The notes under the pieces were generated by a model, which was given only the letters and a program-made list of their open reading frames with translations, searched no databases and was not told the DNA's origin. DNA of 64,000 nt from Magnetococcus sp. DMHC-6 (GTDB taxonomy: Bacteria; Pseudomonadota; Magnetococcia; Magnetococcales; JADFZT01), in the NCBI GenBank assembly GCA_039908535.1, contig JAMOAW010000027.1, positions 10,705 to 74,704 of the forward strand. The letters run 5' to 3'. Below, piece after piece: positions 14,534 to 19,433 of the stretch (position 1 is its first letter; the number at the start of each line of letters is the position of its first letter). The translations under genes were made by a program, and so were the position numbers.

Positions 14534-15088
14534 ATGGAAATTCATGGCACCCGATTTGGGACTTTGGAGTTTGATGAAGAAGAGATCATTTTTTTGGATG
14601 ACGGACTCCTGGGGTTCCCTCTAAGCAAAAGATATCTGTTGTTCCCTTATGGAGAGGGATCGTCGTTTTTTTGGCTGCAATCGGTAGATGAGCCAGAGAT
14701 CGCCTTCATCGTGGTGAATCCATTCGACTTTTTTTCCAATTTGGAGTTTCAGGTCGAAGATGAGGATGCCCTCGCCATTAAATTGGAGAAGGGAGAGGAT
14801 GTCGAGGCGTTTAGTTTGGTGACCATCCCAGAAGGTCGGCCAGAAGAGATGCGTACCAATTTGGCAGGTCCCGTGGTGGTGAATATTGCCAATCGGCGGG
14901 GTCGGCAAATTTTGCTGAAAGAGTTCTCTCCTAGGCAACATTTGATTCCAGTGGAGATGCGTAAAAATTATCTTCAGGAGGCTCAGCAAGGACGTGCAAC
15001 GCAACGTAACTTGGCCAGAAATCAAGCAAGAATTCAATCAAGCCGAGTGAGACGACACAAACCTGTCCGTATGGCAGCGGTTGGTTAA
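14534..15088 (+). CDS. fliW: Flagellar assembly factor FliW (copy 1, with basic C-terminal tail)
   Basis: MEIHGTRFGTLEFDEEEIIFLDDGLLGFP...FFWLQS...PEIAFIVVNPF...NLAGPVVVN is the FliW pattern. GGAGA RBS before the ATG at 14534; the track start at 14510 is less likely. Confidence 0.85.
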   Translation: MEIHGTRFGTLEFDEEEIIFLDDGLLGFPLSKRYLLFPYGEGSSFFWLQSVDEPEIAFIVVNPFDFFSNLEFQVEDEDALAIKLEKGEDVEAFSLVTIPEGRPEEMRTNLAGPVVVNIANRRGRQILLKEFSPRQHLIPVEMRKNYLQEAQQGRATQRNLARNQARIQSSRVRRHKPVRMAAVG

Positions 15089-15108
15089 CTATCCAAAACA
15101 ATAATAAT

Positions 15109-15118
15109 AGGAAGAGGA
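15109..15118 (+). promoter_or_regulatory. Double GGA motif overlapping the SD of the giant flagellin
   Basis: AGGAAGAGGA lies 8 nt upstream of the ATG at 15126. Confidence 0.35.
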
Positions 15119-15125
15119 ACGCACC

Positions 15126-17627
15126 ATGTCACTTTTCATTAACACCAATTTGGCCTCGTTGAATGCTCAAAGACATTTATCGGGAACAACGAATAAGTTA
15201 GGTCAGACCTTCGCGCGGCTATCTTCGGGATTGCGTATCAATACAGCTGGAGACGATGCGGCTGGATTGGCCATCAGTAACCGGATGACCGCCCAGATTC
15301 GTGGTTTGACCACCGCGATTCGCAATGCCAATGATGGTATTTCTGTCTCGCAAGTGGCTGAAGGTGCTCTGGATGAGACCTCTAATATGATACAGCGGAT
15401 TCATGAACTCTCGGTCCAGGCGGCCAACGCCACCAATAGTGATGAGGACCGGGCCAGTCTGCAACAGGAGGTGTCGCAACTGCTCTCTGAGATTGATCGG
15501 GTGGCTCAGGAGACGGAGTTTAATAATTGGCCTATGTTGAATGGTCAGACCAAGCCGCTGGTATTTCAGGTGGGTGCTAAAGAAGATCAGACCATTTTGG
15601 TGCAACTGGCCGATGCTAGGGCCGAAGTTTTGATGACACAGACGGTATTGGCCGATCCTAACAGCCCAGAGAGTGTCAATAATGCCAAAATTAAGGGGAT
15701 GACGATCAAGGCCCCAAATCCGGCTCTGCCTGGTTCCAAGTTGTTTAGCTCCGGTGTGGCTTCCGTTATTGCCGCCTATGCCAATGCCAAAATTAAAGAA
15801 TCGGCCCCGGCTACTACAAAGGCGGCAGATGTGGCCAAAAGTGGTATTGAAGCTGTGAAGGGCAATCCGGCCTCTTTGGCGGTTGTTGAAAACGCGGTTT
15901 TAGCTGTAAATAGGGGAACTCCCGCTGCAGGGGATCATGCCAGTGCCATTATTAAGGCGGTGGACGGAGCTGGGACAATCGCCAATGTGGTGGATGTGGC
16001 GGTAGCTGCCGTTGCTGGCAACGCTGCAGCGGTTACAGCGGCCGATGCTGGGGTGAGCAATGGGCATGATGCTTCTATTATCGCGGATGCCATTGTTCAG
16101 GCAGATGGGACGATCACGAAAAAGAATGCCAAAATAATTGCCGCTGCTGCTTTGGCTGCGGGTGCCCCTGGTGGAAGTGTGACCAATGCGCGTAACGCCG
16201 CTACGGGGGCGGCCATTACCAACGACGACTCTAGCATTCGCAGTGATCAAGCGGAAGTGATTGCCGCCGGGGCGTTTGCGGCGGGTCAGAGTTCTTCTTA
16301 CGATGAAATTATCACGGCCATTGAAGGCTCTGAGGTGACTTCTGTTGCTGGGGTGGGTGCTAAGGTGACTGCTGCTGGTGTCAATGATCTCCTGAAAGAT
16401 GAAGTGACTACCGCCATTATGGCTGGTGTGACGAATGGGGATGACATTGATACTATTGCCGCTGCCGCAGTGGCTAAAGATACTTCGGAAGAACTGACCT
16501 TAGACGAAGCTCGGTTAATTGCTTTCTTCGTCAAGACTCCTGTTGTGTACAATGCAGTGTTTAAGACTAAAGTCGGCACCGAAGAACGGCTTGATGTGAT
16601 TAAGGCCATATATGCAGGGGTGACGCAAGGGGATTCCGTTGATGTGATTGCCACAGCGGCAATGGTTGCTGATTCTGGACATAATTTAACCATAGACGAT
16701 GCCAGGGTGATTGCTGCCGCTGGATTGGCTGAGGCCAAGAGTGGTGACGCGGGCATAGGTGCGAATGGGTCGATCTCTTTGGCTGCCAAGGAGGTTCCGA
16801 CGAAGAGCAAGGTGGTCAATGCCATTACCGACTCTGCGGCTGCTGCGGATGTTGTCGAGGATGGGGTGATTGCGGGTGGGGTGAAGGATGTTCCAGTTGG
16901 CAATATTATTGATGTGATCAAATCTTTTCAGTCTGTCATCAATATGGGGGGAGATATTGATAGCATTGCTGAGGCGGCGGTAAAAGCGGATAAGGGGGGG
17001 CATTTAACACTCTCTTTGGCCAAAGTGATAGCGGCGGCTGGGCAGGTGGCTTCTGGTGCCGTGGCTTCGGCGGCCACGACTGCGTCGGCGGCGGCAGCGG
17101 CTAAGGATATGGCCACGGTTCTGGATGCGCGGGATGTTGCCGTGACGTATGCGTCAACGGTTGCGGCCAAGCCGATTCCTGGGGATTTTGTCACGGTGCC
17201 GAGTTGGTTGATCAATACCTCTGGGAGCAACACTTTTCCGCCAACTCCCTATATTGACATCACCGGGAAGACGATTCCCACCGATCCGACCTTACCGTTT
17301 GATCCGCCTACTACGGATGATTCTAATCCTCCGCTTTCTGGGCAGGCGGCGGCGGGACGGATGTTGGATGTGCTGGTGAGAGCGTTGGATCGGGTCTCTT
17401 CGACGCGGGCCGAATTGGGTGCGATTCAAAATCGTTTTGAGTCCAATATTTCCAATCTTTCTAATGTGGTGGAGAATGTTTCGGCGGCACGTTCGCGGAT
17501 TATGGATGCCGATGTTGCCGATGAGACAGCCAATTTGACCAAAATGTCGATTATTCAGCAGGCGGCTACGGCGGTTTTAGCTCAGGCCAATCAACAGCCG
17601 CAACTGGCCTTGCAACTGCTGAAATAG
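15126..17627 (+). CDS. fliC: Giant flagellin (833 aa) with ~590-aa Ala/Val-rich central insert
   Basis: Canonical flagellin N-terminal domains (aa 1-~150) and C-terminal domains (aa ~745-833: [12 protein letters not shown]...[31 protein letters not shown]) flank a long insert containing degenerate ~40-aa repeats. Confidence 0.9.
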
Positions 17628-18019: not shown

Positions 18020-18505
18020 ATGGAGATTCATGGGACGCGGTTTGGAACGTTGACGTACCAAAAAGAGGATATCATTCAGATGGAAGACGGATTGTTGGGG
18101 TTTCCGTTGAGCAAACGTTATTTGCTTTTTCCATATTCAGAAGAGTCTTCATTTTTTTGGCTTCAGTCTATTGATGAACCAGAAATTGCTTTTATTGTTG
18201 TCAATCCATTTGAGTTTTTCGCCGATTTAGAAATAGTCATAGAAGATCATGACGCGATCGCGATTGAACTGAAAAACCAGGAGGATGTGGAGTTGTTCAG
18301 CCTAGTGATCATCCCGGAGGGCAAACCGGAAGAGATGCGCACCAATTTGGCTGGCCCCGTGGTCGTGAATGCCACGAATCGCAAAGGACGGCAGATTTTA
18401 TTGAAGGATTATTCACCACGCCAACCGTTGATACCAGATAACATGCGGGAGAGTTATCGGAGGGAAAAACTGTTGGTCCCCAATCGTAGAATGGCTCAAA
18501 AGTAA
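18020..18505 (+). CDS. fliW: Flagellar assembly factor FliW (copy 2)
   Basis: MEIHGTRFGTLTYQKEDIIQMEDGLLGFP... is collinear with copy 1. The track ORF starts at a TTG at 17828, but its first 64 aa have no counterpart in copy 1. Confidence 0.85.
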   Translation: MEIHGTRFGTLTYQKEDIIQMEDGLLGFPLSKRYLLFPYSEESSFFWLQSIDEPEIAFIVVNPFEFFADLEIVIEDHDAIAIELKNQEDVELFSLVIIPEGKPEEMRTNLAGPVVVNATNRKGRQILLKDYSPRQPLIPDNMRESYRREKLLVPNRRMAQK

Positions 18506-18567
18506 ACATAAGAGTCAAACATGAAGTGGGAACATGCCCTTAGATGAAAGAAGGGTGTGAGGAAATT

Positions 18568-18595
18568 CAAAGGATTTTGTCACTAAATAAGAGGA
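18568..18595 (+). promoter_or_regulatory. Flagellin leader with two GGA motifs (CsrA-type)
   Basis: cAAAGGA at 18568-18574 and AAGAGGA at 18589-18595 (the SD). ATG at 18603. Confidence 0.4.
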
Positions 18596-18602
18596 TCGAA
18601 CC

Positions 18603-19433
18603 ATGCCGCTTTTTATTAATACCAATGTTGCTTCGTTAAATGCGCAGCGCAATTTGAACAAGTCAACCGGCGAACTGGGCAAAACTTTTGCTCGTTTGGC
18701 CTCTGGTCTTCGGATTAATTCGGCCAAAGACGACGCCGCTGGGATGGCCATTAGTACTCGTATGACTTCGCAGATTCGTGGATTGAGTCAGGCTTCTAGA
18801 AACGCCAATGATGGTATTTCCCTGATTCAGGTTGCGGACGGTGCTCTTGAAGAGACGACCAATGCCTTGCAAAGAATTCGTGAATTGGCGGTTCAGGCTG
18901 CGAATGGTACTTACAACTCTACCGACCGTGCCGATCTGCAAAAAGAGGTTGATCAACTTCTTTTTGAAGTGGATCGGATTTCCACAGACGTAGAGTTTAA
19001 CAACAAAAAATTGCTTTTGGGTACGAGTATTCGCAGTGTTGATTTTCAGATAGGCGATAAAGAAAATCAGACGATTGAAATCACGATCACCAGTTGTGAT
19101 ACGAGGGCTTTGCTTGGATTAACTAGCGCGAATGTGACTATTATCACAGCTTCTGATGCGGGGATGGCCTTGACGCAGTTGACTAAAGCTTTGGACAGTG
19201 TGACAACAATACGGGCCACCTTGGGTGCGGCGCAGAATCGTTTTGAAGCGGTGATCAATAATCTTTCGAACGTGGTGGAGAATATTTCAGCAGCTCGTTC
19301 GCGGATTGTGGATGCCGATATTGCCGCTGAAACGGCGACATTGACACGCAATGCCATTTTGCAACAGGCTGGAACAGCGGTTTTGGCTCAGGCCAATCAG
19401 CAGCCACAGTTGGCTTTGCAGTTGCTTGGCTAA
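18603..19433 (+). CDS. fliC: Flagellin (276 aa)
   Basis: Flagellin N- and C-terminal conserved blocks. Differs from the 281-aa pair in the central region. Confidence 0.95.
   Translation: MPLFINTNVASLNAQRNLNKSTGELGKTFARLASGLRINSAKDDAAGMAISTRMTSQIRGLSQASRNANDGISLIQVADGALEETTNALQRIRELAVQAANGTYNSTDRADLQKEVDQLLFEVDRISTDVEFNNKKLLLGTSIRSVDFQIGDKENQTIEITITSCDTRALLGLTSANVTIITASDAGMALTQLTKALDSVTTIRATLGAAQNRFEAVINNLSNVVENISAARSRIVDADIAAETATLTRNAILQQAGTAVLAQANQQPQLALQLLG

Follow-up and report, generated by a model that had tools for sequence, protein, structure and literature searches.

The switch formed by flagellin, FliW and CsrA is regarded as the ancestral mode of Csr regulation, but the organisms in which it has been dissected have, to our knowledge, no more than one or two flagellins. 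In the Magnetococcales, the flagellar bundles are complex and made of many flagellins. A member of this order, the freshwater Magnetococcus sp. DMHC-6 (a metagenome-assembled genome, GCA_039908535.1), has its late flagellar genes in the 64,000-nucleotide (nt) stretch analysed here (contig JAMOAW010000027.1, positions 10,705 to 74,704, forward strand), referred to below as the window. Domains were assigned by a Pfam profile scan, and a tblastn search with the flagellar and CsrA proteins across the whole window yielded exactly two fliW, four flagellin and one csrA genes. As the original prediction had stated, fliW copy 1 precedes the gene of a large flagellin, fliW copy 2 precedes that of a 276-amino-acid (aa) flagellin, and the lone csrA is found ca. 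21 kb away, at 40044-40277, after flgM-flgN; Pfam and tblastn agree on both points. This double cassette is a real, conserved variant of the known circuit. The two other flagellin genes, which stand in tandem, carry a structured leader RNA that recurs in other Magnetococcales.

The Hag-FliW-CsrA system of Bacillus subtilis (Mukherjee et al. 2011, 2016; PMC6529632; PDB 5DMB, 6GOW) and the present locus have the three protein families in common, as well as the position of fliW after flgK-flgL and before a flagellin gene. FliW residues F58, N108 and Q124 are kept (K123 being replaced by R), as is the flagellin Asn equivalent to N255, and the C-terminal extension of CsrA has a similar S-x-D-V-(L/I) segment. 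On the other hand, csrA is immediately 3' of fliW in B. subtilis, translationally coupled to it and thus at a fixed stoichiometry, whereas here it is distant and on the other strand. Moreover, the fliW-flagellin module is duplicated, four flagellins are present instead of one, CsrA has T55 instead of N55 together with an E. coli-like core, and the fliW-linked flagellins are without a conserved second GGA site.

In Campylobacter jejuni, where the partner switch operates, the sigma-28-dependent flaA has a leader with two ANGGA hairpins, compensatory support and high affinity, and the sigma-54-dependent flaB has a GGA at the Shine-Dalgarno (SD) sequence only, with low affinity (PMC4894983). The window likewise has one flagellin with an SD-proximal GGA only and another with a compensatory-supported ANGGA hairpin leader, although the flaA leader has 45 nt and two hairpins, while an extra conserved stem-loop precedes the GGA hairpin here, and C. 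jejuni has one FliW instead of two. The sigma-54-then-sigma-28 hierarchy, with promoter classes that are putative in the window, and the separation of csrA from fliW are further likenesses. Helicobacter pylori possesses two FliW paralogs and one long-form CsrA, as does the window; at least one of its fliW genes is reported to be sigma-54 dependent, and the division of labour between its FliW1 and FliW2 has been left unresolved (PMC11905337). Its paralogs are 39.5% identical vs. 74.5% here (over 149 aa, tblastn), where they are in tandem, each followed by a flagellin gene and both apparently sigma-54 driven. We take the H. pylori fliW genes to be dispersed and not beside flagellin genes.

The marine strains MO-1 and MC-1, from the same order of bacteria, share with the window the flgKL-fliW-fliC-flaG-fliD-fliS-fliS backbone with its two fliS, many flagellin paralogs in tandem arrays and, for MC-1, a csrA after flgM-flgN. 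The published descriptions of these strains give the cluster one fliW and one fliC (PMC7175107, PMC5088516), to which the window and 32 other species genomes add a large flagellin and a second fliW. As for the gamma-proteobacterial CsrA/RsmA-CsrB/Rsm-BarA-UvrY system, it resembles the present one in the CsrA core (ca. 73% identity to E. coli CsrA, with a pass in NF002469) and in the BarA-like kinase nearby. It differs by the presence here of FliW, which is strongly anti-correlated with BarA-UvrY (PMC4682653), by the conserved CsrA extension and by an Rfam search that found no Rsm/Csr small RNA (sRNA) in the window.

Flagellins without a linked fliW share the structured leader; the comparative set comprised 45 Magnetococcales loci, obtained from a scan of one genome per species. 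RNAalifold provided the consensus structure, and a covariance model (R1) built from 20 copies was searched with a cut-off of E < 1e-4. The model finds 23 copies in 11 genomes, i.e. the window and loci L005, L007, L008, L009, L012, L014, L019, L033, L037 and L044; in the whole window, no copies were found besides those of the tandem flagellins (Table 1). The general layout comprises a 6-bp stem with the loop GCCC-NGU-AAAAYGAA, a CC-ANGGAN-GG hairpin, a variable hairpin and then the SD sequence. In the first window copy, the 6-bp stem surrounds the loop GCCCUUUAAAAUGAA and is followed by a CC-AAGGAA-GG mini-hairpin, which holds the GGA placed at 7672 by the original prediction. The second copy contains the GGA placed at 8635 and is followed by a terminator-like hairpin (8647-8664).

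In the model alignment, the 6-bp stem is paired in 99.3% of the cells, with changes on both sides in five of its six pairs, and the whole structure beats 500 of 500 shuffles and every slid control. The CC/GG pairs closing the A-N-G-G-A-N hexaloop are nearly invariant (columns 47-48 and 56-57 are C-G in 21-22 of the 23 copies), and the hexaloop stem reaches 5-6 covarying pairs in some copies (GGAUCC/GGAUCC, GACCC/GGGUC, CUCACC/GGUGAG). This hairpin sits 42-46 nt upstream of the SD GGA. A leader of the hag/flaA type, with two GGAs as putative CsrA sites, is found at the tandem flagellins (7732 and 8691) only, both fliW-linked flagellins (15126 and 18603) lacking it. Since the stem tolerates G.U pairs on the sense (+) strand only, the leader is to be regarded as an RNA feature, and a promoter or a DNA palindrome is unlikely. 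An H-type pseudoknot between a GGG 5' of the stem and the CCC of the loop is compatible with the sequences but tentative, covariation giving it no support because two-sided changes are missing from all three of its pairs, one of which is not formed in 6 of the 23 sequences.

Rfam gave no matches in the whole window at gathering thresholds, and a permissive scan of 7450-8720 returned chance-level hits only. A metagenome scan for the leader motif was not informative, adding only three full matches, on contigs of ca. 1 kb; one of these matches is 680 nt 5' of a flagellin gene with a divergent leader copy of its own. Concerning locus L012, an orphan copy (L012:5514-5600) is located 77 nt past the last tandem flagellin; a strong intrinsic terminator follows it, and no gene lies beyond. 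This copy could be a relic or else an independent small RNA with a GGA hairpin, and orphan leader and terminator together could even make a small CsrA-titrating RNA.

Pairs of GGA motifs had originally been noted in all four flagellin leaders of the window. Their places proved right within 1-3 nt (the GGAs are at 7674, 7719/7722, 8639, 8678, 15110/15116, 18571 and 18593), but their occurrence is at chance level. GGA has a background of 1.9 per 100 nt on the + strand, at least one is present in 81% of all 85-nt segments of that strand, and an SD GGA with at least one upstream GGA within 100 nt is found in 14 of the 30 window genes with Pfam-supported or open reading frame (ORF)-predicted starts, including purB, an epimerase gene, fliS2 and flgN. 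Folding of the leaders, proposed at the time as a check, did not help either: in minimum free energy (MFE) folds of the four leaders, the upstream GGAs were not placed in hairpin loops, and the stability of the leaders did not exceed that of shuffled sequences (z = -1.3, -1.0, 0.0 and -1.7; -0.01 for the 15089-15125 spacer).

The two GGAs before the 833-aa flagellin (-16 and -10, 6 nt apart) sit inside the SD region and therefore make one site, not two; before the 276-aa flagellin, the MFE fold of the 18506-18602 spacer pairs two GGAs with each other's flanks. Among relatives, whose spacers frequently measure just 28-45 nt, the SD GGA is the only conserved GGA, both in 34 orthologous spacers between fliW1 and the large flagellin (37-139 nt) and in 44 between fliW and the small flagellin (28-328 nt, many of ca. 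30 nt), and model R1 has no copy before either of the two window genes. A sigma-28-like -10 box (xCCGATAx) shares nucleotides with the stop codon of fliW in many lineages, which would give a leader of ca. 20 nt with a single GGA. Because the conserved leader occurs at the tandem flagellins only, the upstream GGAs at 7672 and 8635 are probably meaningful, whereas those at 15109 and 18568 are unsupported. A sponge function of the fliW2 leader or spacer, with many GGAs to capture CsrA, was rejected, since the GGA enrichment, summed over 23 loci, is 1.3-fold downstream of the promoter and 1.6-fold upstream of it.

The gene order flgK-flgL-fliW (174-188 aa)-flagellin (578-960 aa)-fliW (161-167 aa)-flagellin (273-327 aa)-fliD was found in 32 other species-level genomes, mostly freshwater, and a single cassette in about eight genomes of the comparative set. 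In a midpoint-rooted neighbour-joining tree of FliW, 34 upstream copies (W1) cluster with the single-copy FliWs, away from the downstream copies (W2), which form several groups outside this cluster and evolve faster. The mean identity is 79% among W1, 69% among W2 and 66% between W1 and W2 of the same genome; gene conversion between the copies was therefore rejected, as they cluster by position and not by genome. In the flagellin tree, the large flagellins, including the 833-aa protein, are monophyletic and adjoin the small fliW-linked flagellins, the tandem flagellins standing apart, and the 276-aa flagellin is orthologous to the fliW-linked flagellin of the single-cassette relatives. These trees and identities show that the fliW-flagellin module of an ancestral flgK-flgL-fliW-flagellin-fliD cluster was duplicated in tandem once, long ago, and that asymmetric divergence followed. 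The upstream flagellin became large and acidic and the downstream one stayed ancestral-like; the upstream FliW combines an ancestral-like core with a basic C-terminal tail, and the downstream FliW evolves faster.

The middle region of the 833-aa flagellin comprises 588 aa, is Ala/Val-rich and acidic and, judged by eye, appears internally repetitive. Across genomes, the mean net charge is -19 for the large flagellins vs. 0 for the small fliW-linked ones, and the conserved termini evolve more slowly in the large flagellins than in the small one. By the threshold of > ca. 1000 aa that Thomson et al. 2018 (PMC6248924) give for 'giant flagellins', the 833-aa protein and its 578-960-aa orthologues fall below that class. 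The conserved Asn of the C-terminal D1 helix (Hag N255, FlaB N287), which takes part in FliW binding (PMC12327847), is kept in all four window flagellins. It was mapped by an ungapped alignment of the 276-aa flagellin C-terminus with the B. subtilis flagellin (6GOW_D 218-303); the other three flagellins have the same E-N motif, which in tandem flagellin 1 lies in ISENTS, in the same C-terminal register.

All relatives of the two FliWs are from Magnetococcales. Both pass Pfam PF02623 (114 and 119 bits; cut-off 25) and are below the stricter NCBIfam equivalog cut-off (114 and 123 bits vs. 130). The start of fliW2 was set at ATG 18020 (MEIHGTRFG) by alignment to 78 orthologues, all starting with ME(I/V)HGTRFG, and the N-terminal extension from TTG 17828 is spurious, as it is not conserved among them. 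Residues were mapped by alignment to Geobacillus thermodenitrificans FliW (5DMB_A), their roles being taken from B. subtilis genetics (bioRxiv 2020.07.02.184341). Three of the five mapped residues proximal to CsrA N55 are unchanged in both FliWs, namely F58, N108 (N109 here) and Q124 (Q125 here), and they are kept in at least 85% of the W1 set and of the W2 set, while the K123 position is R in both paralogs. The differences between W1 and W2 consist of a relaxed conservation in W2 and of the C-terminal tail. This tail is rich in Arg/Lys in FliW1 (about residues 150-184, window 14981-15088; net charge +10) and ends with RMAAVG; it is kept in 33 orthologues, where it ends with (K/R)MAAAG. Bacillus FliW has no such tail, and FliW2 has a shorter one, with QMVAV(S) at its end; the mean net charge of the tail across genomes is +7.7 for FliW1 vs. 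+3.8 for FliW2.

The window CsrA (77 aa), 100% identical to the CsrA annotated for Magnetococcus sp. DMHC-6, passes Pfam PF02599 (90 vs. 27 bits), TIGR00202 (94.5 vs. 70.1) and NF002469 (104.8 vs. 73), and its core is E. coli-like (78 vs. 59 bits). The segments MLILTRR and VHREEIY, which hold RNA-binding residues (L2, L4, R6, R7, R44, etc.), are invariant. As in FliW-regulated CsrAs, the protein extends beyond the core of ca. 60 aa; this C-terminal extension of 20 aa can be aligned with those of B. subtilis and G. thermodenitrificans, and the protein, extension included, is 81-95% identical across Magnetococcales. A conserved N59 lies one helical turn after residue 55. Both in the window and in Magnetococcus marinus MC-1, csrA closes a flagellar operon (flgFGAHIJ-flgM-flgN-csrA). 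No csrA was found within 10 kb of fliW in any of the 45 loci, so that the B. subtilis-type architecture is not present there. Three genes of hybrid histidine kinases stand beside csrA, at 31278-33755 (-), 33998-36172 (+) and 36349-39831 (+); the last one, convergent with csrA, has the BarA-like domain order HisKA-HATPase-REC-REC-HPt.

Regarding transcription, the sigma-54-type pattern TGGCAY-N6-TGCW precedes flgK in 38 of 39 loci and the downstream fliW in 23 of 24 long-spacer loci, vs. a background of 0.016 per 250 nt. No promoter motif was seen in the 37-nt spacer between fliW1 and the large flagellin gene, and the two are therefore probably co-transcribed. In the window, flgK-flgL-fliW1-large flagellin would thus form one sigma-54 unit ending at a terminator-like hairpin, and fliW2 would have its own sigma-54 promoter. 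A sigma-28 promoter at 17676 (GCCGATAA) for fliW2 was rejected, as the box is the 5' arm of that hairpin and the -35 spacing is wrong. In relatives, TGTCAAA / TTTTTTGACGAAT elements are repeated upstream of the sigma-54 motif in the spacer that separates the downstream fliW from the large flagellin (loci L008, L013, L014, L019, L022, L033 and L037; not obvious in the window), and they are possibly sites of an enhancer-binding protein.

Taken together, these observations are best accounted for by the known partner switch of flagellin, FliW and CsrA, working here with several flagellins, with a shared FliW pool and the tandem-flagellin mRNAs as CsrA targets, a proposition that we hold to be evenly poised. 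With two sigma-54 units, both FliWs and the large flagellin would probably be produced when the hook junction is built, as FlaB is in C. jejuni. FliW1 and FliW2 would most likely form one interchangeable pool, which any unsecreted flagellin would titrate; free FliW would relieve the repression exerted by CsrA, itself supplied from the flagellar operon. The tandem-flagellin mRNAs are the strongest predicted targets, since, as with flaA of C. jejuni, their leaders carry the conserved ANGGAN hexaloop before the SD GGA; the fliW-linked flagellins would offer the SD GGA alone, a low-affinity single site at best. The partner-switch layout recognised by the original prediction thus stands as regards the parts list and the strong conservation of the FliW, flagellin and CsrA-extension residues, with a caution at residue 55 of CsrA.

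Several points weigh against this shared-pool switch. CsrA N55, which contacts FliW Q124, is reported to be invariant in FliW-encoding organisms and essential for FliW binding (bioRxiv 2020.07.02.184341), and T55 takes its place in the window CsrA and in every Magnetococcales CsrA aligned. The CsrA core scores as E. coli-type NF002469, below the long-form NF001844 cut-off (50 vs. 106), and both FliWs have L at the loss-of-function-sensitive P26 and G at A111. On the RNA side, the mini-hairpin has 2-3 conserved pairs only and does not appear in the MFE folds of the window's own leaders, and the conserved upstream stem-loop may be a site for another factor. The promoter classes rest on consensus matches, and the long retention of two FliWs suggests a non-redundant role, which a common pool does not explain.

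Three other explanations were weighed against the shared-pool switch. The paralog-specific homeostasis put forward by the original prediction, in which FliW1 would serve the large flagellin and FliW2 the 276-aa flagellin, each reporting to the one CsrA, draws on the adjacency of fliW and flagellin, kept in 32 other genomes in spite of 66% identity between paralogs, and on the fact that only FliW1 has a conserved basic tail and only its neighbour is an acidic flagellin. Yet no core position is fixed differently between W1 and W2 in a scan for specificity-determining (type II) residues at an 80% threshold, 64 of 148 core positions (F58, N109 and Q125 included) being conserved in both alike, and the FliW-binding Asn and the conserved D1 segments are present in all four flagellins. 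Mirror-tree comparisons controlled for FlgK, a crude test in which the pairs are not independent, gave no signal of cassette-specific co-evolution: the partial r is 0.03 for W1-large and 0.20 for W2-small, below the 0.35 of W2-large, and reaches 0.56 for W1-W2 and 0.74 for large-small flagellin. Genome by genome, the FliW1 tail charge does not track the flagellin charge, and one fliW suffices in relatives with up to 15 flagellins (PMC7175107). The claim of dedicated pairs has thus lost ground and we consider it unlikely; a pairing through the FliW1 tail is possible, though unsupported.

It has also to be considered that the FliWs could be flagellin chaperones or assembly factors only, CsrA being controlled otherwise (for example by sRNAs or a BarA-like kinase) without any partner switch. 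T55 fits such a scheme, as do the gamma-proteobacterial type of the CsrA core and of its closest relatives outside Magnetococcales, the HisKA-HATPase-REC-REC-HPt kinase adjoining csrA and the fact that M. marinus is among six species in which FliW and a BarA-like kinase are reported to occur together (PMC4682653). On the contrary, Q125, N109 and F58 of FliW are invariant in both paralogs, and the extension, without function in sRNA-regulated CsrAs, is highly conserved in Magnetococcales and resembles that of B. subtilis. Furthermore, csrA sits within a flagellar operon, the Rfam search of the window turned up no RNA of the CsrB/Rsm type, and the kinase-csrA adjacency does not exist in MC-1. 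The uncoupling of csrA from fliW, which also fits a chaperone role, is tempered by the C. jejuni genome, where the two genes are unlinked as well. Altogether, a chaperone role alone seems quite improbable. The same holds, in our opinion, for a tandem-flagellin leader that would not be a CsrA site at all, but an element for another regulator or ligand, an attenuator or a processing signal, with an incidental GGA. Its best-supported part, the 6-bp stem with a conserved 16-nt loop, is indeed without counterpart in known CsrA sites, the variable third hairpin is terminator-like in the window, and the orphan copy has a strong terminator and no gene. Nevertheless, the near-invariant CC/GG-closed ANGGAN hexaloop, with its covarying pairs in some copies, is a classic CsrA/RsmE hairpin at a suitable distance (42-46 nt) from the SD GGA.

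The features of the window are collected in Table 1. flgK and flgL were named from position, length and synteny of the homologous ORFs (tblastn, 45 loci). After the fliS pair, a 113-aa ORF (22213-22554) matches a coiled-coil rod domain only, weakly and below threshold, and is possibly FliT-like. Dispersed intergenic repeats of the REP/MITE type, built of GC-rich hairpins (GGGGGCGGAGAACCGCCCCCC, CTGGGGGATTGCCCCCAG), are located at about 900, 2200, 3750, 7015-7280, 9537-9813, 22586-22750, 30730-30860, 36190-36330, 39833-39990 and 48230-48540. They flank the tandem flagellin pair on both sides, abut the 3' end of csrA, and are probably bidirectional terminators. Tandem repeats were found within ORF 26518-27012 (54-nt period, array 26676-27041) and at 61340-63036 (units of ca. 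420 and ca. 276 nt).

Table 1. Genes, promoter motifs, leaders and spacers of the flagellar region, with positions counted from the first nucleotide of the window
Feature	Position	Strand	Basis or remark
Putative sigma-28-like promoter, TCAAGTCC-N11-GCCGATAA	7467-7493	+	5' of tandem flagellin 1; consensus match by pattern scan
Structured leader, flagellin 7732	7632-7685	+	Model R1, 49 bits, E ca. 1e-12
Tandem flagellin 1 (281 aa)	7732-8577	+	Pfam Flagellin_N/Flagellin_C
Structured leader, second copy, flagellin 8691	8596-8650	+	Model R1, 41.6 bits, E ca. 1e-10
Tandem flagellin 2 (281 aa; 93% identity to flagellin 1)	8691-9536	+	Pfam Flagellin_N/Flagellin_C, tblastn
Sigma-54-type promoter motif, TGGCATATTATGTGCT	11052-11067	+	Upstream of flgK
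flgK (11119-12930) and flgL (12990-14507)	11119-14507	+	Hook-filament junction proteins, 5' of fliW1
fliW1, long form (184 aa)	14534-15088	+	Pfam FliW, 114 bits
Spacer fliW1-large flagellin (37 nt)	15089-15125	+	Single SD-region motif AGGAAGAGGA
Large flagellin (833 aa)	15126-17627	+	Pfam Flagellin_N + Flagellin_C
Terminator-like hairpin, GCCGAUAAAA/UUUUAUCGGU, then UUUUGUG	17676-17712	+	3' of large flagellin; 10 bp, z = -2.1
Sigma-54-type promoter motif, TGGCACATTCCATGCA	17850-17865	+	Upstream of fliW2
fliW2, short form (161 aa)	18020-18505	+	Pfam FliW, 119 bits (ORF 17828-18505)
Spacer fliW2-276-aa flagellin (97 nt)	18506-18602	+	Four GGAs, not conserved in relatives
Small fliW-linked flagellin (276 aa)	18603-19433	+	Pfam Flagellin_N + Flagellin_C
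fliD	19755-21227	+	Pfam
Two adjoining fliS paralogs	21351-21752 and 21767-22213	+	Pfam; 3' of fliD
csrA (77 aa)	40044-40277	-	Pfam CsrA
flgN	40388-40903	-	Pfam FlgN; between flgM and csrA
flgM	40916-41224	-	Pfam FlgM; upstream of flgN-csrA
Sigma-54-type promoter motif	46192-46207	-	Upstream of cluster with flgA (43655-44431), flgJ, flgM, flgN, csrA

As a whole, the comparison indicates that counting GGA motifs near SD sequences has no discriminating power, while conservation and covariation do discriminate. The tandem-flagellin leader could be a new RNA that couples CsrA binding to a second input (attenuation, another protein or a ligand), and the basic tail may adapt FliW1 to the large acidic flagellin, CsrA contacting FliW in a non-canonical manner through T55. 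Considered jointly, a new class of cis-regulatory RNA in Magnetococcales and FliW paralogs made client-specific by the FliW1 tail are a rather doubtful combination for the time being. The clade-wide duplication of FliW, the sensor of the switch, beside a new large flagellin provides a natural test for a client-specific switch, and a CsrA with a gamma-proteobacterial-type core and a FliW-type extension without N55 bears on the shift of CsrA from protein to RNA antagonists. Since a cultivated relative with the same double cassette exists (strain FCR-1, locus L019; PMC11950176), these questions are experimentally accessible.

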